Source of the DNA: Deltaproteobacteria bacterium
Lineage (GTDB): Bacteria > Desulfobacterota > Desulfarculia > JACQYL01
Assembly (NCBI GenBank): GCA_016208165.1
Contig: JACQYL010000001.1
Span: 8,099-72,098, forward strand
Direction: 5' to 3'
DNA length: 64,000 nt
Every line of letters begins with the position of its first letter. Position 1 is the first letter of the stretch. The translations under genes were made by a program, and so were the position numbers. Positions 2,468 to 54,707 of this stretch are shown here, piece after piece. The notes below the pieces were generated by a model, which worked only from the letters and a program-made list of their open reading frames with translations, did no database searches and was not told where the DNA came from.

Positions 2468-3279
2468 ACTTCCATTTGACAGATAAGAGTCGAAATGTTA
2501 AACAAATAGCCGGTCTTGGCGAAAGTATTCCGGGACATCAACTTACGATCGGGCGATTCGTTGCAGTCCTTCCACCTCTCGGGTCGATCGTGGCGAATCT
2601 GATAGTCCTGATGACCTTGAGCATATCTTCTTACTGCACATCGGCGTGCGCCGACGGTGCTTACGAAATGCCGGCATGCGCATACGTGCGGCCCCCGATT
2701 TCCCTTCGCCGATTCCGGAAATTCTCTGAGCGGATACGCCGGGTGCTTGTCGTAGAGTATTCACGATACATCGCCCGGCAAATGCTGCGGGAGCGCGAAC
2801 ACGTGGACGTGCGCCTAAATGGATCTTACGATGCTTTCATGATATCGCCGGCAAGGTCCTCGCCGAGTCTGTAAGAATCGCCTTGCCCCGTGAATTCATG
2901 GTTTTGATCGGAACCTGGTGCCTGTGCTTCAATACCCAGGCGAAGTGACATTCGCACCGGCACGCAGCATGACAAAATTTCCGACAGCGTTCCCCAGCTC
3001 AAGCCTTCCCTGCTTCTGGAAAGTGGAAAGTCAATTGTTACACAAACATCAACAGGCCAACGGGATCGTTTCGCCGGTGATATTGGGGCTCCAGCCTCAT
3101 GCCTGATTACGGGAAATGTCGGGGGTTCGGCTCCTTGATTCAGCTTTGACGCACTTGAGAGCCCGGCGTTCCAACGTCGTGGCGGATGTTAACCAGTGGC
3201 GGGTCGGCATGCGGTTTTGAGTGGAATCCTCGGATGACGCCACGAACACCCAGTCCTCATCCCAGAGGGTGTAGAAGAG

Positions 3280-6039
3280 GTGAAACGAATGAAAGAAGAA
3301 AGGCAAGACAACGCAAAGGGAATAAGCCGGGACAAGGACAAATCGGACGATGGGCGGACGGCGTTTTTGGCCTCCATTGTCGAGTGCTCCGACGACGCTA
3401 TCATGGGCAAGACGATCGACGGGGTCATTACCAGTTGGAACCCTGCCGCCGAATTGATGTACGGTTATTCGGCCAAGGAAATCATCGGCAAGCCTATCTC
3501 CCTCCTCTTTTCTCCCGACCATCCTAGGGAGATGGACGAGATCCTCGCCAAAATCCGCAAGGGACGGCGTGTCGAGCACTACGAAACCCTTCGCAGGCGC
3601 AAAGACGGCTCCCTTATCCACGTTTCCCGAAACCTCGTGAGAGCTTCCTCCATTGCTCGCGACATCTCGGAACGTAAACGAATCGACGAGCAGTTACAGG
3701 CGACGTCCAAATACGCCAGGAGTCTGATCGAGGCTAGTCTCGATCCTCTGGTCACCATCAGCGCCGAGGGGAAAATTACCGATGTCAATGAAGCGACCGT
3801 GAAAGTGACGGGAGTCCCCCGGGACAAGCTCATTGGGACGGACTTCTCGGACTATTTTACCGAGCCGACGAACGCACGGGAGGGATATCGCCAGGTCTTT
3901 TCGCAAGGATTTGTCACGGACTATCCCCTTACCATCAGGCATCGGGATGGGCGACTCACGAACGTGCTTTACAACGCATCGGTGTACAACGACATGCAAG
4001 GCAACGTCCTTGGCGTGTTTGCCGCGGCGCGCGATGTCACGGCTCAGCGGCAGGCGGCGCAGTATGCCAGAAGCCTGATCGAGGCGAGCCTCGACCCGCT
4101 GGTCACCATCAGCCCGGAAGGAAAAATTACGGACGTCAATGAGGCCACCGTGAAGGTGACCGGCATCCTCCGGGACAGGCTGGTAGGAACGGACTTTTCG
4201 GACTATTTCACCGAGCCCGATAAGGCGCGGGAGGGATATCAGCAGGTCTTCCAGGAGGGCTTTGTCACGGACTACCCCCTGACCATCCGGCACAGGGATG
4301 GAAAACTGGTGGACGTTCTGTACAACGCCTCGGTCTACAAGGACGTCACCGGCAGTGTCCTCGGCGTCTTTGCAGCAGCCCGCGATGTCACGGCCGAGCG
4401 TCAGGCGGCCCAGTACGCCAGGAGCCTCATTGAGGCGAGCCTCGACCCCCTGGTCACCATCAGCCCGGAAGGAAAAATCACGGACGTCAACGAAGCGACC
4501 ATAAAGGTGACGGGTCTTCCCCGCGACGGGCTCATCGGCACGGACTTCTCGAACTATTTTACGGAACCCGAGAAGGCCAGGGAAGGGTACCTGCAGGTTT
4601 TCGAAAAGGGCTTTGTCACGGACTATGCCCTAACCATCCGGCACAGAGACGGGAAATTGGTGGACGTCCTATACAACGCCTCGGTCTACAAGGATATACG
4701 GGGCAACGTTCTCGGTGTCTTTGCCGCCGCCAGGGACGTGACGGACACCAAACGGGTCATGCGCGAGTTCTCGGAAACAAAGAACTTCCTGGATAACATC
4801 CTCGAGAGTTCGACCAAATACTCGATCATCGGAAAAGATCTGAACCACCGTATCCTCTCATGGAACGAGGGGGCCCGGCGCAACTACGGCTACACGGCGG
4901 AGCAGATCATAGGCAGAGACTCGAGCATCCTACACACGCCCGAGGACCTCGAGTCGGGCATCGTGGACAAGATGCTGGATATGGCCTATGAAAAAGGACT
5001 GGCCGAGGCCGAGTTTCAGCGGGTTCGCAAAGACGGCTCCCGTTTCATGGCGAGCGTGGTTGTTACACGCCGAAACGACCCTTCAGGTAATCCCCTCGGC
5101 TTTCTGCTCATGAGTAACGACATCTCGGAAAAGAAGGAGGCTGAGGAACAACTCCGCGAGGCTTCGCAGTATGCCAGGAGCCTGATCGAGGCCAGTCTCG
5201 ACCCCCTGGTCACCATCAGCCCCGAAGGAAAGATTACGGACGTCAATGAAGCGACCATCAAAGCTACCGGCTTTTCCAGGGACAAGCTTATCGGAACGGA
5301 CTTCTCGGACTACTTCACCGAGCCTGAGACTGCACGCAAGGGATATGAGCAGGTATTTCAAAAAGGCTTTGTCACCGACTACGCGCTGACTATCCGCCAC
5401 AATAACGGTCAGCTCACCGATGTTCTTTATAACGCCAGCGTGTATAAAGACACCCGCGAGAACGTGATTGGGGTTTTTGCCGCGGCGCGCGACGTCACGG
5501 CCCAACAGCAGACTTCACAATATGCCCGAAGTCTGATCGAATCATCCCTCGACCCGCTGGTGACGATCAGCATCGACGGCAAAATCACGGACGTCAACGA
5601 GGCTACGATTCGGGTCACGGGCGTCGGTCGCGACCAGTTGATCGGCACCGACTTTTCCAACTATTTCACGGAACCCGAAAAAGCTCGCGAAGGCTATCAA
5701 CAGGTATTTGCCAAGGGCTTTGTTACCCACTACGCGCTGACCATTCGCCACAACAACGGCCAACTCACCGATGTTCTTTACAACGCCAGCGTGTACAAAG
5801 ACACCCGAGAAAACGTGATAGGCGTCTTTGCCGCCGCGCGCGACGTAACGGCGCGTAAACGCGTCGAGGAGGAATTGTTCGAACAGCGTCGGAGAGAGCT
5901 GGACCGGCTGGCGGAGCTTGAAAAATTCCAGAAACTGACGGTGGGGCGCGAACTCAAGATGGTTGAACTGAAGAAGGAAATCGAGGATCTAAGAAAAATC
6001 AATGAAGAATATGAGCGCAAATTAAGCCAGAGGGTGTGA
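3280..6039 (+). CDS. multi-PAS domain signalling protein (seven PAS units, five of them near-identical tandem copies) with C-terminal coiled coil
   Basis: A 919-aa ORF. The block YARSLIEASLDPLVTIS.EGKITDVNEAT.KVTG...GTDFS.YFTEP..AREGY.QVF..GFVTDY.LTIRH..G.L.DVLYNASVY.D..GNV.GVFAAARDVT recurs five times with a 357-360 bp period, plus one divergent PAS unit (NFLDNILESS...). The C-terminus LTVGRELKMVELKKEIEDL is coiled coil. No kinase domain. Confidence 0.85.
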   Translation: MKRMKEERQDNAKGISRDKDKSDDGRTAFLASIVECSDDAIMGKTIDGVITSWNPAAELMYGYSAKEIIGKPISLLFSPDHPREMDEILAKIRKGRRVEHYETLRRRKDGSLIHVSRNLVRASSIARDISERKRIDEQLQATSKYARSLIEASLDPLVTISAEGKITDVNEATVKVTGVPRDKLIGTDFSDYFTEPTNAREGYRQVFSQGFVTDYPLTIRHRDGRLTNVLYNASVYNDMQGNVLGVFAAARDVTAQRQAAQYARSLIEASLDPLVTISPEGKITDVNEATVKVTGILRDRLVGTDFSDYFTEPDKAREGYQQVFQEGFVTDYPLTIRHRDGKLVDVLYNASVYKDVTGSVLGVFAAARDVTAERQAAQYARSLIEASLDPLVTISPEGKITDVNEATIKVTGLPRDGLIGTDFSNYFTEPEKAREGYLQVFEKGFVTDYALTIRHRDGKLVDVLYNASVYKDIRGNVLGVFAAARDVTDTKRVMREFSETKNFLDNILESSTKYSIIGKDLNHRILSWNEGARRNYGYTAEQIIGRDSSILHTPEDLESGIVDKMLDMAYEKGLAEAEFQRVRKDGSRFMASVVVTRRNDPSGNPLGFLLMSNDISEKKEAEEQLREASQYARSLIEASLDPLVTISPEGKITDVNEATIKATGFSRDKLIGTDFSDYFTEPETARKGYEQVFQKGFVTDYALTIRHNNGQLTDVLYNASVYKDTRENVIGVFAAARDVTAQQQTSQYARSLIESSLDPLVTISIDGKITDVNEATIRVTGVGRDQLIGTDFSNYFTEPEKAREGYQQVFAKGFVTHYALTIRHNNGQLTDVLYNASVYKDTRENVIGVFAAARDVTARKRVEEELFEQRRRELDRLAELEKFQKLTVGRELKMVELKKEIEDLRKINEEYERKLSQRV

Positions 6040-17184: not shown

Positions 17185-18243
17185 ATGACGAAGATACCGC
17201 CCGGAACCAAACGGATGTTGCTGGGCATACTTGTATTGGGGATAACCGGTCTCCATTACGGTACGGATATCGCATTGTCCCACCATCATATCTTCTATCG
17301 TGAACTGTACTATCTTCCTCTGGTCCTGGCGGCTTTCTGGTTCGGCGTACGAGGCGCCCTGATCACTTCGTCCATCATCGCTCTTCTGTATCTTCCGTTC
17401 ATTTGGATGAGTTGGGAAGGCTTTTCCGTCCAAGATTTCCACGCGCTGATCGGAATAGCGCTTTACTATGTTATGGCTCTTCTCGTGGGCATACTGAGAG
17501 ATCGAGAACAGGCCAAGCACAAGCGTCTCGTGGAAGCTGAGAGCCTGGCGGCCATCGGAAAGGCGCTTTCCAGCGTTGCTCACGATTTCAAGACCCCGCT
17601 CATTGCTATAGGAGGCTTTGCCAGGTGGGTCCAGAAAAGGATGAGAAACGATGACGCCTGCTACGACAAGCTCGATATCGTTATTGGAGAAGCCCGGCGA
17701 CTGGAGAATATGGTGAATGAGATGCTGGACTTCTCGAGGCCTTTGCAGTTGAGTCGATCCACAACAGACCTATCGGATATTGTAAAAAAAATAGTAACCA
17801 TATGTCTTGAAGCGGATGGCAAGCGAAGGGTGAAGATTGACATCGAATGTGCGAAAGATCTGCCCACCCTGTTCCTGGACCAAATGAGAATGGAGCAAGC
17901 ACTGATTAATTTAATGTGGAACGCCGTACAAGTTACGCCCGAGGAGGAGACGGTGACCATAAAGACCTCCTCGAGCAGCGGCTACGTAAGGATAGAAGTT
18001 AGGGATTCCGGTTGTGGGATACCCCCTGATCTCCGAGAGAAAGTCTTCTCTCCTTTCTTCACAACCAAAAAGGATGGGACCGGATTAGGGCTTCCTATCG
18101 CCAAAAAGATCATCGAAGCTCACGGAGGAAGGCTGGAAATGAACGATAATCCGGGAAAAGGAACCGTGTTTACGGCTTCTTTGCCTATCCAGACTCCGCA
18201 CGATAGAGCGTGTCGAGAAAATAGTAAGGACTCTGATTTGTGA
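17185..18243 (+). CDS. membrane sensor histidine kinase (KdpD-type transmembrane module + HisKA + HATPase_c)
   Basis: The N-terminal 4-TM module LHYGTD..HHIFYRELYYLPLVLAAFWFGVRGALITS resembles the membrane module of KdpD-type kinases (pattern match). H-box SSVAHDFKTPLIAIGGF. G-boxes DSGCGIP and GTGLGLPIAKKIIEAHGG. Confidence 0.85.
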   Translation: MTKIPPGTKRMLLGILVLGITGLHYGTDIALSHHHIFYRELYYLPLVLAAFWFGVRGALITSSIIALLYLPFIWMSWEGFSVQDFHALIGIALYYVMALLVGILRDREQAKHKRLVEAESLAAIGKALSSVAHDFKTPLIAIGGFARWVQKRMRNDDACYDKLDIVIGEARRLENMVNEMLDFSRPLQLSRSTTDLSDIVKKIVTICLEADGKRRVKIDIECAKDLPTLFLDQMRMEQALINLMWNAVQVTPEEETVTIKTSSSSGYVRIEVRDSGCGIPPDLREKVFSPFFTTKKDGTGLGLPIAKKIIEAHGGRLEMNDNPGKGTVFTASLPIQTPHDRACRENSKDSDL

Positions 18244-18369
18244 GACGGAATGTTGGACGCCGATATTGAACTGGTCTTTCTGACACGGGTAGCATTGTCT
18301 TGGGGGGGATAATTACAAGTTAATAGGGCCATACGTCTTTGCCAACCTATTCCATGGGAGATCGTATAT

Positions 18370-19212
18370 ATGTCCAATAAGATCAAAAAGATATCTGTTA
18401 TCTTCGTTCTCATAGTTATTGTTACCGTGCTTCACTATTCAACCTCTATGAAGAAAGCGCCATTGCATGTTATATACAGGGAATTGTATCTTATACCCAT
18501 TCTATTAGGCGCAGTTTGGTACGGTATGAAGGGAGGCTTAATAACCTCAATTGCGTCATCCATGGTATATATTCCATGCGCTATGATGAGTTCTTCTGGG
18601 GCGCCGTCGTTCTTTATGGTAAGTAACATAGCTGAAATAGCGACATTTAATATCGTCGCATTGATCGTGGGTAGGTACTCGGACTTGAGGCGAAAGTTTA
18701 TCTTGGGTGAAAAGCCGGAGAAGGGTACTCAGGAATATAAAGTCAATGAATTGAATGAGTTAGATGCTGGGCGAAACATATTGATATGCCTCGAACCATC
18801 GAACGACACATTGAAAGAGGTTGACTATGTGGCACGAATGCTTACCAAAAATGAACATACAAGGGCCACGTTATTGGGTATCTTTCGTGAGCCGAAAGCG
18901 GATTTATTTCCAAGTGAGAACGAGATGAACGCCTACAGAGCGGAGAAGGAAACAGCGTTGGAAGGGATATTGCTTAAGTCGGCGCAGATGTTGAAATCAT
19001 CGGGCCTTGGCGAGGACCAGGTGATCAGCAAGACCGTACGGTTTCAGCACGGTCATGCGGCGGATCAGATCGTCAGAGAACAGGAAAAAGGCCGATACGA
19101 CACCATTGTTGTCGCCGGCGCGAAGATGCCGAAGCAACAGGAATTCTTGTTCGGGAATCTGCCGGTAAAGGTGATTCGTTCTGTTGACTGTCCGGTAATT
19201 ACCGTCTATTAG
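18370..19212 (+). CDS. membrane protein: KdpD-type transmembrane module fused to a universal stress protein (UspA) domain
   Basis: The N-terminus LHYSTS..LHVIYRELYLIPILLGAVWYGMKGGLITS is homologous to the N-terminus of the upstream kinase. The C-terminus ...YDTIVVAGAKMP...VKVIRSVDCPVITV is a Usp fold. Confidence 0.72.
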   Translation: MSNKIKKISVIFVLIVIVTVLHYSTSMKKAPLHVIYRELYLIPILLGAVWYGMKGGLITSIASSMVYIPCAMMSSSGAPSFFMVSNIAEIATFNIVALIVGRYSDLRRKFILGEKPEKGTQEYKVNELNELDAGRNILICLEPSNDTLKEVDYVARMLTKNEHTRATLLGIFREPKADLFPSENEMNAYRAEKETALEGILLKSAQMLKSSGLGEDQVISKTVRFQHGHAADQIVREQEKGRYDTIVVAGAKMPKQQEFLFGNLPVKVIRSVDCPVITVY

Positions 19213-25082: not shown

Positions 25083-25741
25083 TCTCCTCTAAATTGATAA
25101 ATAATCGCGGCCATTCATACGATGATTTTTCCACAGATTCAGAGTTCTGTCCAGTTCTTGACGCCCGGTTCACCGGCAGAAGTTTCCGGGTGTCAGTGCT
25201 TAAATGTTAAAAACCGATTCCGCCATGGTAATTCGTTAGAAAACCCGTGAGGGGACCCGATACAAGGCGATCTGATTTCCCACTTTTTCGGTGCATTCGT
25301 CGCTTCCCCGGAACCGAGCGATCACCTGTGCTGTTTGGCGCCCTCTATTCCGGCGGTTGCCGGCCGCCTTCTTCAATCAGGACGCCTGAGAACTTGAGCT
25401 TGACATAAGCATAGTATTAAAAATAGGGTGTGGAAAGTGGCAAAAACGACATTGAACCTCAAGATAGCGTCAAATCGGCACTGCATCATTCACGTGCGAA
25501 CACAGCAGCGGCGCGTTCGGGATCATCAGAAAGGCTTCCGACACCTATCTTTCATGTACATTTTGACTTCCATATCAAACCGAAACGACGCCGAGAGGTT
25601 GTGTGTGATCGTTCACCAATGAGATCATTTTAGGCTCCTTATATGCTTATTGCAAAACCGAGCTTTTTGTAATTCGATAAATGAGTGTAGCATGCTAAAT
25701 GGAACGGTTGTTGGCTATTAGCAATGCTTCAGCCATGATGG

Positions 25742-26725
25742 ATGGATGATATGAAGGTGACCATATTAGCTCTCTACAATACGACTGGAACCAGCGTAAT
25801 GGGTCCCATGGATGTTTTCTTTCATGCCGGCAAACTCTGGAATCACATTAACGGCTTAAAGCCGACACCGTATTTTGATGTTGAAATCGCCGGTATGGAC
25901 GGAAAACCGGTTAAGTGCATCAATAACGTTTTGATTCAACCCCACTGCTCGATTGACGATGTACAAGAAACCGATCTCATTATGATCGCCTGTATCGCCA
26001 ATTTTGGAAAAACAATAGAATATAACGCTAAGGCATTGGAATGGCTTAAGTATCACTATCGGAGGGGAGCAGATATCGCCAGTGTTTGCACGGGGGGATT
26101 TTTTCTGGCCGCAACCGGACTCTTGGACGGAAAAACGGCAACGACCCACTGGGGCTTTGTAAACCTCTTCAGAGAGATGTTTCCGAAGGTCCATCTGAAA
26201 CCGGAACGGCTGATTACGGATGAGGGCAATTTGTACTGCTCGGGAGCATTGTACTCCGGCGTCGATCTTTCCGTTTACCTTGTGCAAAAATACTGCGGCC
26301 ATGAGGTGGCTGTTCAATGCGCCAAAACCCTGATCCACGACATGGACCGAAACTCCCAGGTTCCGTATGCTGTTTTGGAATTTCAGAAGAAGCATAGGGA
26401 CGAAAAGATAAAGAGGGTTCAGCAGTGGATAGAAACTAATTTTACGGAAAGGGTCGATTTTGACGAAGTGGCCAGAGAGAACGGAATGAGCCGGCGCACG
26501 TTCGAACGCCGATTCAAATGTGCAACCGGCGATACGCCGTTATTATATTTGCAGCGAACAAGAGTGGAAACCGCGAGAAGACTGTTGGAGGAACACTTCC
26601 TGACGTTTGACGAAATCTGTCATCACCTGGGTTATGAAAACAGCAACTCCTTTAGAGAAGTGTTTAGAAAGCACACCGGACTTTTACCAATGGAATATCA
26701 GAAAAAGTTCCGTATCATCCCGTAG
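25742..26725 (+). CDS. AraC-family transcriptional regulator with N-terminal DJ-1/PfpI (GATase1-like) domain (GlxA-like)
   Basis: The N-terminal half has the DJ-1 fold with the nucleophile elbow (SVCTGGFFLAATGLL). The C-terminal AraC HTH pair ends ...EICHHLGYENSNSFREVFRKHTGLLPMEY. Confidence 0.85.
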   Translation: MDDMKVTILALYNTTGTSVMGPMDVFFHAGKLWNHINGLKPTPYFDVEIAGMDGKPVKCINNVLIQPHCSIDDVQETDLIMIACIANFGKTIEYNAKALEWLKYHYRRGADIASVCTGGFFLAATGLLDGKTATTHWGFVNLFREMFPKVHLKPERLITDEGNLYCSGALYSGVDLSVYLVQKYCGHEVAVQCAKTLIHDMDRNSQVPYAVLEFQKKHRDEKIKRVQQWIETNFTERVDFDEVARENGMSRRTFERRFKCATGDTPLLYLQRTRVETARRLLEEHFLTFDEICHHLGYENSNSFREVFRKHTGLLPMEYQKKFRIIP

Positions 26726-50208: not shown

Positions 50209-51813
50209 TTATTCGAAACGGATGTCGTCGACGTTGATGTGACCCCAGCCGCTGCTCGATTGATCCACAATGCGGATTCGGGCGGTCCGGCCCAGGAAAG
50301 GCCTCACGTCCCAGACCAAGCTCTCCATGGTCTCATTGCACTTGCCGGCGGCCTTTCTTTCCACTTTGCCGCCAACCAGCAGTTCCATGCGCACCTTGGA
50401 TTCATCGCATCCTCCGCCGATCCGAAATCGGATATTCGGCTCGGTGATGGTAAAGGGGTCCGAAAGGAGTGTTCCCTGGGGCCCATCTCCCTGGACCGCC
50501 CCCGGTGGATCCGATGGACGGGGCCGCTTCTCAAATCCCCCTATCCAGTAGTCGCCTTCATGGCCGGACGGCTGTCCTCTCCGTCGGGCCGTGGGGTTGT
50601 CCCCATAGGTGGGCTGATGGGTAAACGCATTACCCGTCTTCTTCCATCCGGGCAGCTGCGGATTTTCGAAATCCCAACTGATTTCCGCGGAGCCGGGAGA
50701 CGCTAAAGGCTGGGCGCCGACGTCTTCCCCGGATTTCGGAGCTTTACCTTCCGAGGCCGGTCCCAGGTCAAGGAAGCGGACGTCGTCAAAATTGATGTGC
50801 CCCCACCCTGCGCTCGACCCGTCCACCAGTCGTATGCGCGCCGATTTCCCCTGGAATTTGGAGACATCCCAATAGACGCGCTGCATGCTCTCGTTACAAT
50901 TTCCGGTGGACGCCCGGACAACGCGCCCATCTACAACGAGTTCCGCGCGCGCGGTAGTCATGTCGCAGCCGCCGCCCAAGAGAAAGCCGATACCCGGTTT
51001 GGCGATGACAAACGGCGACGAGGTGAGGGTTCCCTGCGGGCCATCCCCTTGTATCGCTCCGGGCCGGTCAAAAGGTCGGGGACGCCTTTCGAATCCGCCG
51101 ATCCAATAGTCTCCTTCGTGCATGGACGGCTGACCTCGGTGGCGGGCCGTTGGGTTGTCTCCGTAGGTGGGCTGGGATAGGAAAGCATCTCCCGTTTGTT
51201 CCCATCCCGACAGGTCACCGGTCTCAAAATCCCATGTAGTTTCCGTGGCTTCCTCGGTTTGAATCGGCTCCTTTTCTCCGCCGGTGGTTTCCGCCTTGGC
51301 CGGCGGCGTTACTGAAACCGGGGGAACTTCCGTTTTTTCCGTTCCGAGAAGCCCTCCTATCAGGGTGCGAGTCAGGGTAGTGAGGAGATTCAGATCGTTG
51401 CCGCTCACGTTGCGCCCCAATTTGGCCTCTCCGGTTTTCACGTCGATCATCCTCGAGTTGATGGTATAGGCCGTGCCGATTTTGACGACCGAACCCACGA
51501 TGATGAGATCCGCGCCCAGAAGCTTGCCGAGTTCCACGGCGCTGCGGTCATCGATCACACCGGACATCTGAAGTTCCTGTTCGGAAAGGGCCCTTCTGAT
51601 TTGAGCGCGTTCCACAACGCGAAATTGTTGGGTGCCCACCAGTTCGGTCCGCATGATCTCGGCTACCGCTTTTCCGAGGTATTCCTCGGAGCCGATGCTT
51701 TCGAAATCCAGAACGGCAACGGTTGGTTTATTCTCCGCGATTCCGGTGCAAACCACGAACAGCATGGCGAGACAGACCACACTGGTGATCTTTGAAAAGA
51801 ACGAGGGCTCCAT
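50209..51813 (-). CDS. lipoprotein: CsgG/LpoB-like N-terminal domain followed by two tandem approx 165-aa beta-rich repeats
   Basis: Signal peptide with Cys (LFVVCTG). TVAVLDFESIG...RVVERAQI..AL.EQELQMSG is CsgG-like. Then WDFE.G.L.GW..TG.AF..QPTYGDNPTAR.RGQPS.HEGDYWIGGFE.RPRP.D.PGA.QGDGPQGTL.S.PF.I...I.F..GGGCD...RMEL.V.G.V...A.G.CNE.M....WDV..F.G..ARIR.VD.SS.GWGHIN.DD.RF occurs twice. Confidence 0.7.
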   Translation of the reverse strand: MEPSFFSKITSVVCLAMLFVVCTGIAENKPTVAVLDFESIGSEEYLGKAVAEIMRTELVGTQQFRVVERAQIRRALSEQELQMSGVIDDRSAVELGKLLGADLIIVGSVVKIGTAYTINSRMIDVKTGEAKLGRNVSGNDLNLLTTLTRTLIGGLLGTEKTEVPPVSVTPPAKAETTGGEKEPIQTEEATETTWDFETGDLSGWEQTGDAFLSQPTYGDNPTARHRGQPSMHEGDYWIGGFERRPRPFDRPGAIQGDGPQGTLTSSPFVIAKPGIGFLLGGGCDMTTARAELVVDGRVVRASTGNCNESMQRVYWDVSKFQGKSARIRLVDGSSAGWGHINFDDVRFLDLGPASEGKAPKSGEDVGAQPLASPGSAEISWDFENPQLPGWKKTGNAFTHQPTYGDNPTARRRGQPSGHEGDYWIGGFEKRPRPSDPPGAVQGDGPQGTLLSDPFTITEPNIRFRIGGGCDESKVRMELLVGGKVERKAAGKCNETMESLVWDVRPFLGRTARIRIVDQSSSGWGHINVDDIRFE

Positions 51814-52149
51814 GTCAGGACTCCGTTTCGATTGGGTGACTTTAACCTGCCTGTGTTTCTGGAGACGTCTCACCTGCGCGCCGGGAATTCGGACCCGTCT
51901 TCCACGGCTTGGGAGAGCCCCCTGACCGGGGACTCTCTTCCCGCAGTGATCGTGTCCAGTCTTCTATACCTCTTGTCAAAATTCAACCTTTTTGTCCGGT
52001 TTCGGCTGAACCCGTACAACAAGCGATTGCAGAGAAAGCATCCGGGTGCCGTAAGTATTAACGGGGGGAAAACTTTTCAAAAAACTCTTGGAATGTCTCA
52101 CGGCATAGCCCGAGCTTGACTGGTCGGGCTATTTTATATATGAAAAACT

Positions 52150-52740
52150 ATGGGTAAAAAATCCAAGAAAAACCGGAAATCAAAGAAAGGAAAACCAAAC
52201 CACCAAAAACGGCCCATATCAAACCAATCCGAAAGGCGCAAAAAAGTTCAAGAAAAAAACTTCTCAAAAATATCAATAGTTCCAAAAAAGTTAATTGCTA
52301 TAATCTGTACTCTCTCAAGTATAATAGCATTTGTCTTTTTGTTTTTCCCAAGAGTGGCTCTCGAAATTGGACCAATATTAAAACCAAATGATCCATTCAA
52401 GAATATTTTATACCTTTCAAATAATGGGTATTTCCCTATTTATAAAATATCTTGTTCGGTATATATCGTAGAGGCAAAAGGTGAAAATGCCAATTTCAGC
52501 CGTAATAATGTCTGGGATGTAAAAGGATTAAATTTACCTAAAATATCACCAGACGATAAAGCTCCATTAAGGCTTGAACATGTACTTAATATACAACCAT
52601 TCATTTTAGATCGTATTAAAGTGAAATTAACTATAAATTGTAAACTTTGGCCGATTCCGTTAAATTTTACTAAAGTTTTCCATATAGAGGCCAAGCAAAC
52701 CTTTGATAAGAAGTGGATTTGGATTCATTCAACGGAATAG
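52150..52740 (+). CDS. hypothetical membrane-anchored protein encoded in an AT-rich islet
   Basis: Local GC is far below the flanks. Lys-rich N-terminus (MGKKSKKNRKSKKGKPNHQKRP), one TM helix, and an approx 130-aa domain with no recognisable motif. Confidence 0.5.
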   Translation: MGKKSKKNRKSKKGKPNHQKRPISNQSERRKKVQEKNFSKISIVPKKLIAIICTLSSIIAFVFLFFPRVALEIGPILKPNDPFKNILYLSNNGYFPIYKISCSVYIVEAKGENANFSRNNVWDVKGLNLPKISPDDKAPLRLEHVLNIQPFILDRIKVKLTINCKLWPIPLNFTKVFHIEAKQTFDKKWIWIHSTE

Positions 52741-52787
52741 ATATCTACCGTAAAATGGGACATTCCGAAACGATGAAAAAGTCCGGC

Positions 52788-53852
52788 TCAGGGTTCCAAA
52801 TTCAGCGAAGAGGCATGCTTGCGATAGAGCCCCCGGAACTGGTGGTAGGTGAGGCCCAGAAGCTCGGCCGCTTTATGCTGGCGGAAGCGGGCCTCGAGGA
52901 GGGCCCGCTGAATCAGTCGAATTTCAAGATCGGCCACCTGCCGGGTCAACGGGGTGTCCAGGGCTAGGGCGGGTTCAAGCGGAGACTGGACCGCCGAATC
53001 AGCGGTCTGGCTCTGTTCGGAAGGGGGCGCCAAAACGGATTCAGGGAACGGATCGAAGACGATTTCTTTAATGGATTCAGAGTCGGATCGGTAAACGGCG
53101 CGTTCCACTACGTTCTTGAGTTCGCGTACATTTCCGGGCCAGGAATAGGCCTCAAGGGAGATCATGGCCTCTCGAGTGAACACCGGCAGGGCGTCGTGTC
53201 CCAATTCCTTTGCGATGCGCGAAGCGAAGTGACGCGCGAGAAGAGACACATCTCCCGCCCTGTTCCTGAGCGCCGGCAACAGCAGTACTTCAAAGGAGAG
53301 CCGGTCGAGGAGGTCGCGTTTGAACCGGCCTTCGCGCGCCAGGGCCGGCAAGTCCGCATTGGTGGCCCCGATGATGCGGACATCGACCATTACGACGTCC
53401 GACCCTCCAACCCGTTCAAAAGTGCCGTATTCCACGACGCGAAGAATTTTCTCCTGGGCTTCAAGGGGAATATTGCCGATTTCGTCGAGGAAAAGCGTAC
53501 CCCCGTGAGCGGCCTCGAAGCGCCCTATTCTTCGTTTGACGGCGCCGGTAAACGCCCCCGGCTCATACCCGAAGAGCTCGGATTCGATGAGGCCCGGAGA
53601 GAGGGCCGCGCAATTCAGAGCAAGCAGGGGACTCCTCCAACGGTGGGAAAGATAATGGAGACGGGAGGCGGCCAGTTCCTTACCGGTTCCTCTTTCTCCG
53701 ATGATGAGGATTGGGCGGTCCACACGTGCGGCCCGAGATAGACGCTCCTGGAAATCCAGAAAGGATTCCGACTCACCAAGGCCTTCCTGGGAAGCGAGGG
53801 CGGGCATGTCGGTCTGGTTGCGAGTGAAGGATGACATGGTGTATATTACCAT
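52788..53852 (-). CDS. pspF: sigma-54-dependent activator PspF (AAA+ domain + HTH, no receiver)
   Basis: GERGTGKELAASRLHYLS...ESELFGYEPGAFTGA (GAFTGA motif). C-terminal HTH. Divergent from pspA. Confidence 0.85.
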   Translation of the reverse strand: MVIYTMSSFTRNQTDMPALASQEGLGESESFLDFQERLSRAARVDRPILIIGERGTGKELAASRLHYLSHRWRSPLLALNCAALSPGLIESELFGYEPGAFTGAVKRRIGRFEAAHGGTLFLDEIGNIPLEAQEKILRVVEYGTFERVGGSDVVMVDVRIIGATNADLPALAREGRFKRDLLDRLSFEVLLLPALRNRAGDVSLLARHFASRIAKELGHDALPVFTREAMISLEAYSWPGNVRELKNVVERAVYRSDSESIKEIVFDPFPESVLAPPSEQSQTADSAVQSPLEPALALDTPLTRQVADLEIRLIQRALLEARFRQHKAAELLGLTYHQFRGLYRKHASSLNLEP

Positions 53853-53969
53853 ATATAGGCTAAAATAGCCAGTATTTTGCTAAAACAGCCGGATTACGTT
53901 CAGCCGGCGGGTCTCTGATTCACGTACAACTCGTTGATATTGCTTAGCTAGTATGGATTTTGCCCAAGT

Positions 53970-53984
53970 TGGCCCGGTTGTTGC
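53970..53984 (+). promoter_or_regulatory. sigma-54 promoter (TGGCCCG-N4-TTGC) upstream of pspA
   Basis: -24 GG / -12 GC elements with correct spacing, about 40 bp upstream of the pspA ATG. Confidence 0.5.
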
Positions 53985-54023
53985 CCACTTTCATGGCAAC
54001 CAAGCCACAAGAGAGGTGACATC

Positions 54024-54707
54024 ATGGGCGTTTTCAGCAGAGTTCGAGATATCGTGAGTTCAAACATCAATGCCATGCTGGACCGGGCGGAAGACCCGGA
54101 GAAGCTGGTCCGGCTCATGATCCAGGAGATGGAGGACACCCTGGTGGAAATCAAAGCCTCGTGCGCAGGGGCTATGGCAGCCAAAAAACAAACGCAGCGG
54201 GCTTTGGAAGACCACCGGGAGCGGACCCGTTCGTGGGAGCAGAGGGCGGAGCTGGCCGTTGGAAAGGGGCGCGAGGACCTGGCCAGAGAGGCGTTGCTGG
54301 AAAAACGCCGGTACCTGCAGCGCGCGGAGACCCTGGAGGACGAAATGGGTCAGACGCAGGCCATCATTGCCCAATACCAGGAACAGATCGCCCAGCTCGA
54401 GGAGAAGCTGGCCACGGCCAGAGAAAAGCAGCGTCTGCTCGTTCAGCGACACGTTCATGCCCGTGATCGGAAACGAGCCCAGGAAGACATTCGGCGCTTC
54501 GAAACTTCCGATGTGTTCCTGAGGTTCGAGCAGTTCGAGAACCGCATCGAGCGCATGGAAGCCGAGGCGGAGATGGTCAATCTCGGTCGCACTCCGTCGC
54601 TGGACGACGAGTTTGCCCGTTTAGCGGAAGGCGAAGAGATCGAGCGAGAACTCGAGACGTTGAAAGCCAAATGTGGACGAAGGGGCGAAGAACACCGACC
54701 GATGTGA
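54024..54707 (+). CDS. pspA: phage shock protein A
   Basis: MGVFSRVRDIVSSNINAMLDRAEDPEKLVRLMIQEMEDTL is the classic PspA/IM30 N-terminus. An all-coiled-coil 227 aa. Confidence 0.9.
   Translation: MGVFSRVRDIVSSNINAMLDRAEDPEKLVRLMIQEMEDTLVEIKASCAGAMAAKKQTQRALEDHRERTRSWEQRAELAVGKGREDLAREALLEKRRYLQRAETLEDEMGQTQAIIAQYQEQIAQLEEKLATAREKQRLLVQRHVHARDRKRAQEDIRRFETSDVFLRFEQFENRIERMEAEAEMVNLGRTPSLDDEFARLAEGEEIERELETLKAKCGRRGEEHRPM

Follow-up and report, generated by a model that had tools for sequence, protein, structure and literature searches.

A 64-kb stretch of contig JACQYL010000001.1 from a Deltaproteobacteria bacterium (hereafter the window) contains, between a lipoprotein gene and pspF, an AT-rich islet with a single open reading frame (ORF) of 196 amino acids, referred to here as ORF196. 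We found that this islet ends in the terminal inverted repeat (IR) of an IS1595-family transporter insertion sequence (tIS). Intact relatives of this element measure about 2.7 kb and carry, between IRs with the consensus CGGAATGTCCCAYTTTAAGGTAG, an IS1595 DDE transposase, a gene with a P63C domain and one variable passenger slot near one end. In the window, the unit has neither the transposase nor the P63C gene; what it keeps is ORF196 with its preceding hairpin, a right IR that is almost perfect and, on the left, a degenerate IR-like sequence. Quite probably, then, the segment 52089-52767 is a remnant or a miniature non-autonomous derivative of such a tIS that has retained only its passenger, in other words a cargo-bearing transposon end, dead or non-autonomous, that came from an AT-rich donor. 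Its parts are as follows.

52089-52767, plus strand: the whole inserted unit of about 679 bp (left end, hairpin, ORF196 and right IR), which corresponds to the GC dip and is absent from the syntenic relatives L080 and L081.
52089-52108, plus strand: the degenerate left IR-like sequence TGGAATGTCTCACGGCATAG, whose outer 12 nt agree with the IR consensus CGGAATGTCCCA in 10/12 positions.
52105-52141, plus strand: a GC-rich, terminator-like hairpin in which 9 bp pair perfectly (52105-52113 / 52124-52132) around a loop of 10 nt, and then TTTTATATAT.
52150-52740, plus strand: the passenger gene ORF196, a single 196-aa ORF (ATG at 52150, TAG at 52738-52740).
52745-52767, plus strand: the right terminal IR CTACCGTAAAATGGGACATTCCG, which matches the IR consensus at 22/23 positions and places the element tip at 52767.

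A sequence-only reading of the window had described this region as an AT-rich islet that looked like a recent horizontal insertion between the lipoprotein gene and pspF, and our measurements agree with this description. The GC content of the ORF (52150-52740) is 0.318, compared to a window mean of 0.547 with a standard deviation of 0.044 in 600-bp windows. At z = -5.2 this is the lowest GC anywhere in the window and lies far outside the window variance. The dip extends from ~52100 to ~52760. At third codon positions, the GC content (GC3) of ORF196 is 0.28, compared to 0.67-0.71 in the four neighbours that were measured (the lipoprotein, pspF, pspA and MFS genes), and the low GC is therefore more than a side effect of a Lys/Asn/Ile-rich protein. 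The flanking genes are those that had been named.

50209-51873, minus strand: the lipoprotein gene, with a CsgG/LpoB-like N-terminus.
52788-53852, minus strand: a PspF-type sigma-54 activator, followed by pspA, pspB and pspC.

Elsewhere in the window, GC falls below 0.45 only at approximately 17950-19000 and 25400-26200, where it is ~0.42-0.44. These stretches contain ordinary-looking genes (a histidine kinase with a Usp protein, and an AraC/DJ-1 regulator, respectively) and are not comparable islets.

The site was compared with two long ENA contigs, L080 and L081, whose homologues of the flanking lipoprotein (82% and 69% identity, respectively) had come up in a protein search. Both have kept the gene order pspC-pspB-pspA, divergent pspF and lipoprotein gene, and in both the space between the last two is free of genes. 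The spacer between pspF and the lipoprotein gene measures 521 bp in L080 and 234 bp in L081, compared to 975 bp in the window. In the alignment of the three spacers, the lipoprotein promoter region (~51813-52000) is conserved, the sequence up to ~52085 is common to the window and L080 only, and the whole stretch between ~52090 and the pspF stop codon has no counterpart in the two relatives. Homology to L080 thus resumes at about 52085 and below, just left of the left IR-like sequence. Conservation of the gene at the same site would have spoken against an insertion, and in these two closest syntenic relatives the gene is absent from the site. The best lipoprotein loci in the representative genome collection (L001 and L002, 64% and 58% identity) were not syntenic and gave no information on presence or absence. 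Together, the compositional deviation and the absence at the same site in L080 and L081 support a recent horizontal acquisition of the islet, and its probable vehicle can now be named as the end of an IS1595-family tIS.

The spacer of L080 (7479-8001) holds an unrelated insert of its own, about 290 bp long, with the hairpins GGAACCCTTTTGGAAAAAGGGTTCC and CCCGCAG...CTGCGGG. As this insert differs from the one in the window, the pspF-lipoprotein spacer is a variable spot, and the site looks like a recurrent landing place. In L081, an insertion sequence (IS) with a DDE_Tnp_1 transposase and DUF4372 lies just downstream of pspC (3901-4878), so the psp neighbourhood gathers mobile DNA in more than one lineage.

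The evidence for the identity of the vehicle comes from the right end of the islet. The passenger lies between the IRs (the match of the left IR-like sequence being marginal), with ORF196 4 nt inside the right IR, and L096, L097 and L100 are arranged in the same way. The 15-mer AATGGGACATTCCGA lies 14 nt after the ORF196 stop codon. In the three other loci (L096, L097 and L100), genes of the ORF196 family have this motif, with no more than one mismatch, 1-14 nt after their stop codon. The family proteins encoded by these three loci are only ~25% identical to ORF196. The IR motif, which may also be written as CTACCKTAAARTGGGACATTCCG or CGGAATGTCCCAYTTTA, occurs once within the window, and the 12-mer TGGGACATTCCG had no other occurrence among the 128 loci compared. 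A scan of the IMG/VR viral contigs with a 17-mer of the motif recovered five loci (L129-L133), of which two contain complete IS1595-family tISs between inverted pairs of the motif.

L129, 6110-8812, inverted motif pair: a complete tIS of 2.70 kb with a DNA methyltransferase as passenger and no target-site duplication (TSD).
L131, 2515-5266, inverted motif pair: a complete tIS of 2.75 kb with a 156-aa membrane ORF as passenger and a perfect 8-bp TSD, ATTTTTAA.

In each of these elements, an IS1595 transposase and a P63C-domain gene are accompanied by a single passenger, which differs between the two. The L129 transposase matches NF033547 with 204.8 bits (cut-off 75) as well as PF12762 and the zinc ribbon PF12760, and the L131 transposase is 68% identical to it. 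Transposases of the L129 type are at most 40% identical to the plasmid-borne IS1595 members in PLSDB. The perfect 8-bp TSD in L131 defines the element tips as CGGAATG...CATTCCG. This TSD is AT-rich, and IS1016-type members of IS1595 generate AT-rich direct repeats of 7-9 bp, with 8 bp for ISApl4 (PMC12561309). Transporter ISs are a recognised category that so far comprises only members of the IS1595 and IS66 families (bioRxiv 10.1101/2021.05.26.445724, TnCentral).

A connection between these complete elements and the family of ORF196 is provided by L096, where a C-terminal remnant of the transposase is followed by the P63C gene, a strong hairpin with a T-run, the family gene and the IR. This order indicates that the family gene fills the passenger slot of an IS1595 tIS. 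In L097 (799-983), the IR that follows the family gene is joined after only 171 nt by an inverted partner (ACGGAATGACACATT, 2 mismatches in 15). A second element may thus abut the first one, or a miniature inverted-repeat transposable element (MITE) of ~185 bp may employ these ends the other way round.

A few other repeats and readings were discarded. A 28-nt imperfect inverted repeat (52067-52094 / 52654-52681) was judged to be a chance similarity of AT-rich sequence. The motif at the 3' end was also considered as a dif/Xer-type module and as an IS200/IS605-type subterminal hairpin, and both interpretations were dropped once complete IS1595 elements with the same ends had been found.

The hairpin that had been noticed just upstream of the ORF is indeed there, with its 9-bp stem and T-run, and occupies the region 9-45 nt upstream of the ORF196 ATG. 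In a pattern scan it has the form of an intrinsic terminator on the plus strand (a GC-rich stem and a T-run), and it folds with a z-score of -2.7; 3/200 shuffled sequences fold equally well. As a bare pattern it is not unusual, with 3 terminator-like sites in 2.4 kb compared to 2.9 expected. Its significance derives from its position, which is conserved in related elements: L096, L097 and L100 all have a strong hairpin with a T-run in the equivalent place before the family gene. The one in L096 directly follows the P63C/transposase module, and the hairpin in the window is therefore most simply seen as the terminator of a lost module. It is thus probably a part of the inserted element and not a host feature.

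These observations suggest the following history. An element from an AT-rich donor would have landed upstream of the lipoprotein promoter, at a point ~20 nt downstream of where pspF stops. Its transposase/P63C module may then have been deleted, perhaps with damage to the left end. Alternatively, what arrived may have been a mini-element that never had the module, was moved by a transposase acting in trans and decayed afterwards. ORF196 would work as a single-gene module, as suggested by the way in which its family travels alone as an integron cassette or as the terminal cargo of an IS1-like transposon.

Family members were found in several other mobile contexts. P0003 (36% identity to ORF196; locus L090) is the third ORF of a cassette array beside an integron integrase (IntI; TIGR02249, 460 bits, cut-off 265), and its cassette is bracketed by recognisable attC sites. 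Sites resembling attC also lie beside the family gene in L123/L124 and in L108/L109. P0002 (37% identity) shares an island with HTH_17 genes and a tyrosine recombinase that is not of the integron type. P0006, on a Desulfobacterales contig (L092 4888-5932), directly follows a tRNA-Leu(taa) and a 52-aa C-terminal remnant of a transposase, in a segment with a GC content of 0.316 compared to 0.609 for the rest of the contig. It is a second lone AT-rich islet, and as such an independent and close parallel to the one in the window. The GC content of the family gene was below that of its flanks in 33/34 metagenome loci, which were recovered with the alignment of the larger clade; a scan of metagenome contigs with the close-subclade alignment gave no match.

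In several independent contexts, the family gene is immediately preceded, on the same strand, by a DDE transposase of the IS1-like type or by what remains of its C-terminus. The complete element can be seen in L095, where an IS1-like transposon (2810-5854) with the left repeat GGTAGTGGGTCAGTTTC, the right repeat CAAACTGACCCACCACC and an 8-bp target duplication (TGATTATA) contains a P63C-domain gene and the transposase, with the family gene as the final gene on the side of the right repeat. The same right end follows the family gene in L099, L111 and L112. The L095 transposase has weak matches to IS1, which fits the relation between IS1595 and IS1 expressed in the title of a paper by Siguier, Gagnevin and Chandler (2009, cited in PMC12561309). 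The L095 passenger is itself bracketed by a 22-nt inverted repeat (5149-5170 / 5814-5835, 91% complementary; AATAAATAATTTCGCTTGATTA / TAATCAAGTAAAATTATTTATT). The core of its left arm, CTTGATTATT, is seen again in L096, L097 and L100, where it precedes the family gene by ~60-80 nt, and could be a promoter or a module boundary.

A number of observations weigh against a tIS remnant as the origin of the islet. The window unit has no TSD: duplicated target sequence had been proposed as a check around 52100 and 52750, and the flanks read AAAACTCT and AAACGATG. Searches with tblastn using the L129 transposase and P63C proteins found nothing in the window. The inner part of the left IR-like sequence has diverged or contains indels, and a match of this quality is obtained with p about 0.04-0.06 against window segments or shuffled sequences. 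Because this match is marginal (p about 0.05), the left boundary could be the end-point of a deletion rather than the end of an element. The closest relatives of ORF196 (P0002-P0006) sit in an integron, a recombinase island and beside an IS1-like remnant, and none of them was seen beside an IS1595-type IR, so that the link to IS1595 derives from the IR itself. Finally, only one contig in the databases contains this exact gene; an artefact in the assembly of this metagenome-assembled genome (MAG) is conceivable, as is variable presence at the population level.

The islet may also be viewed as a complete MITE-like mini-element (left IR, hairpin, ORF and right IR) that can still be mobilised and that transposed as such, served in trans by a transposase from elsewhere. 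The outer part of the IR is indeed present at both ends as inverted copies (52089-52100 and 52756-52767, with a 10/12 match), the outer tip of the IR is normally what a transposase needs, the unit is compact at 679 bp, and the L095 passenger is likewise bracketed by its own inverted repeat. However, an 8-bp TSD is lacking, the inner half of the marginal left IR is not conserved, and the 64 kb contain neither a second copy nor an IS1595 transposase, which leaves a still-mobile unit as a real but minor possibility. An origin as an integron gene cassette, by secondary-site insertion through an integrase or as the leftover of a decayed array, would account for the small lone ORF without a Shine-Dalgarno sequence and for the hairpin that immediately precedes the AT-rich leader. 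This leader, TTATATATGAAAAACTATG in the window, also resembles the start of the L090 cassette, TTATAAAATTAAAACACTATG; P0003 is a genuine cassette downstream of IntI, and attC-like sites lie beside the family gene in the further loci named above. Nevertheless, an integron origin is very unlikely here, as the 3' flank of ORF196 is a near-perfect IS1595-type IR instead, the 47 bp between the ORF196 and pspF stop codons are too short for an attC site, and tblastn with the L090 IntI gave no match in the window better than E = 0.96. A crude heuristic scan at a relaxed threshold, made without a calibrated covariance model, found no AAC...GTT site with complementary arms in 51900-52800, a negative that holds for this interval only, as the relaxed scan is unspecific in GC-rich DNA (59 matches in 64 kb). 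The heuristic did recover the sites in the L090 array and in L123, and a strict version of the attC finder proved too strict.

We consider it extremely improbable that the segment is native, i.e., an old lineage-specific gene that owes its composition to a Lys/Asn/Ile-rich protein and was lost in both L080 and L081. Only these two relatives could be compared, both fairly distant as judged by the identity of the neighbouring protein, and the intergenic region is variable, as illustrated by the insert in L080. Against this stand the low GC3, which makes the skew synonymous as well as amino-acid driven, the existence of GC-rich family members (e.g., P0264 with a GC content of 0.53), the transposon IR at the edge of the segment, and the mobile or variable contexts of all sampled homologues. 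Hardly any weight can be given to a prophage or phage remnant either, in which ORF196 would act in the membrane for a phage, for instance as a holin or in superinfection exclusion. The same type of IS1595 tIS is found on viral contigs, P63C is a phage-associated domain and Foldseek returned weak matches to uncharacterised phage proteins. However, no family member was detected in 2.9 million viral contigs with the alignment of either the close subclade or the larger clade, tblastn with ORF196 gave no match in the INPHARED phages (or in the PLSDB plasmids), ORF196 has no PHROG match, and there are no phage genes near the islet in the window.

The passenger had been described as a protein with a very basic N-terminus, one transmembrane (TM) helix and an unassigned extracytoplasmic domain. 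The basic N-terminus is confirmed, but the number of Lys and Arg residues in the first 30 is 13 rather than the 14 that had been counted (17 in the first 40). Rather than being an orphan, the protein belongs to a widespread unannotated family. A word-indexed protein search returned the query alone (a hypothetical protein of a Deltaproteobacteria MAG, with the NCBI locus tag HY788_00285 on an 88.5-kb contig), and a second round with the family profile found 8 proteins. The family was not seen by this type of search, so the exhaustive HMMER search that we ran over 1.84 billion cluster representatives (E <= 1e-3) was needed to reveal it. This search yielded 141 cluster representatives, corresponding to a family of at least 141 clusters at 50% identity. 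Nearly all members are 180-210 aa long, most of them close to 190 aa, and align end to end, and the best homologue is 37% identical to ORF196 (E = 2e-30). The near-invariant residues of the family (P67, P82, N91 and W191) are all retained in ORF196. A polybasic N-terminus, with at least 8 Lys/Arg in the first 40 aa, is present in 120/141 members (median 12 Lys/Arg and 1 Asp/Glu), including members of GC-rich amino-acid composition. No significant match for ORF196 was found in Pfam, NCBIfam, PADLOC or PHROGs. When 117 family members were compared to Pfam, three families were hit by one member each, with E-values of 7e-4 to 9e-3. A profile search of the PDB found nothing below E = 0.1 (best E 0.12).

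With the family alignment, AlphaFold2 (AF2) produced a model with a pLDDT of 84.5 and a pTM of 0.71, whereas the model made without an alignment (pLDDT 40) was unusable. The model consists of a disordered region (1-44), a TM helix (46-64) and an Ig-like beta-sandwich (69-193), in agreement with the single TM helix and the extracytoplasmic domain of the sequence-only reading. By the positive-inside rule, ORF196 is predicted to be a bitopic protein of the N-in/C-out type (type II), with its polybasic tail in the cytoplasm and the beta-sandwich in the periplasm. In structure comparisons the best fold match was ApaG, a generic Ig-like fold. Our best guess for the function, which we hold with low confidence, is an accessory or protective role at the level of the envelope that would need no partner proteins, e.g., the exclusion of phages or foreign DNA or the protection of the membrane.

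If integrons, IS1-like transposons and IS1595 tISs have captured this family repeatedly, this would point to a strong portable benefit. It may be imagined that the family is a self-sufficient single-gene envelope module captured by at least three unrelated mobilisation systems, that it has a one-gene anti-phage, exclusion or membrane-protective function, and that its position beside psp is functionally relevant. As a whole, we regard this proposal as unlikely. The proximity to the psp membrane-stress operon is treated as accidental unless shown otherwise.

ORF196 itself has no Shine-Dalgarno sequence and an A-rich leader. It is convergent with pspF, with 47 bp from stop codon to stop codon. 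Since nothing terminator-like was found within these 47 bp, transcription of ORF196 might run into pspF. An Rfam scan of 51000-54200 returned one sub-threshold snoRNA match only, and a tRNA scan found none in the window.

On the other side of the islet, a promoter-like block upstream of the lipoprotein gene (~51948-51990, minus strand), CAAAAAG(G/C)TTGAATTTT(G/C)A...GAGGTATAGAA, is almost invariant in the window, L080 and L081, whereas the surrounding DNA is much less conserved. The lipoprotein (50209-51873, minus strand) has a duplicated C-terminal domain. Homologues with 48-53% identity over ~60% of the protein are annotated in the cnidarian assemblies of Stylophora pistillata, Porites, Exaiptasia, Actinostola and Oculina, which suggests bacterial contamination, symbiont DNA or inter-domain transfer.

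The islet may be compared to several known systems. The Ig-like sandwich recalls Ig-like and LEA-2-like bitopic proteins such as the luminal domain of TMEM106B and TRAP-alpha, in addition to ApaG, but there is no relationship at the sequence level. As the fold match is generic for Ig-like sandwiches, a transfer of function is not justified. The biological pay-off depends on what the ORF196 protein does. With integron cassettes the islet has in common that its family occurs as a cassette (L090) and that it consists of a single, small, promoter-poor ORF without a Shine-Dalgarno sequence that travels alone. Unlike a cassette, the copy in the window has no attC site that the heuristic scan could detect in its interval, and no integrase. 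What the unit shares with MITEs and further non-autonomous derivatives of ISs is its small size, the missing transposase, the bracketing by IS-type IRs (with the reservation that the left match is marginal) and an apparent origin from a larger autonomous element. Unlike classical MITEs, it carries an intact coding gene of 196 aa, it has no TSD, and its motif is unique in the 64 kb.

The closest resemblance is to the IS1595 tISs, as the terminal IR is shared with the complete elements in L129 and L131, of which the latter has an AT-rich 8-bp TSD, and as the passenger lies inside the IRs. The window copy differs from these in the loss or absence of the transposase, the P63C gene and the TSD, and in its degenerate left IR. 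The subtype with a P63C gene and a variable slot could not be matched to a named IS, and its transposases are distant from the IS1595 members in PLSDB. Two groups defined here are not represented in the curated libraries that were searched: the family of ORF196, whose small and predicted bitopic membrane proteins are carried from place to place by integrons as well as by IS1-like transposons and elements of the IS1595 type, and a subtype of IS1595 tIS with a constant P63C gene and a variable passenger slot, which also occurs on viral contigs with a DNA methyltransferase. The 23-nt IR CGGAATGTCCCAYTTTAAGGTAG is a usable annotation marker for stranded cargo of this kind. What appeared to be an orphan gene in a patch of odd composition would thereby become a case of a known process, in which a cargo-bearing IS delivers a gene, decays, and leaves its cargo behind.

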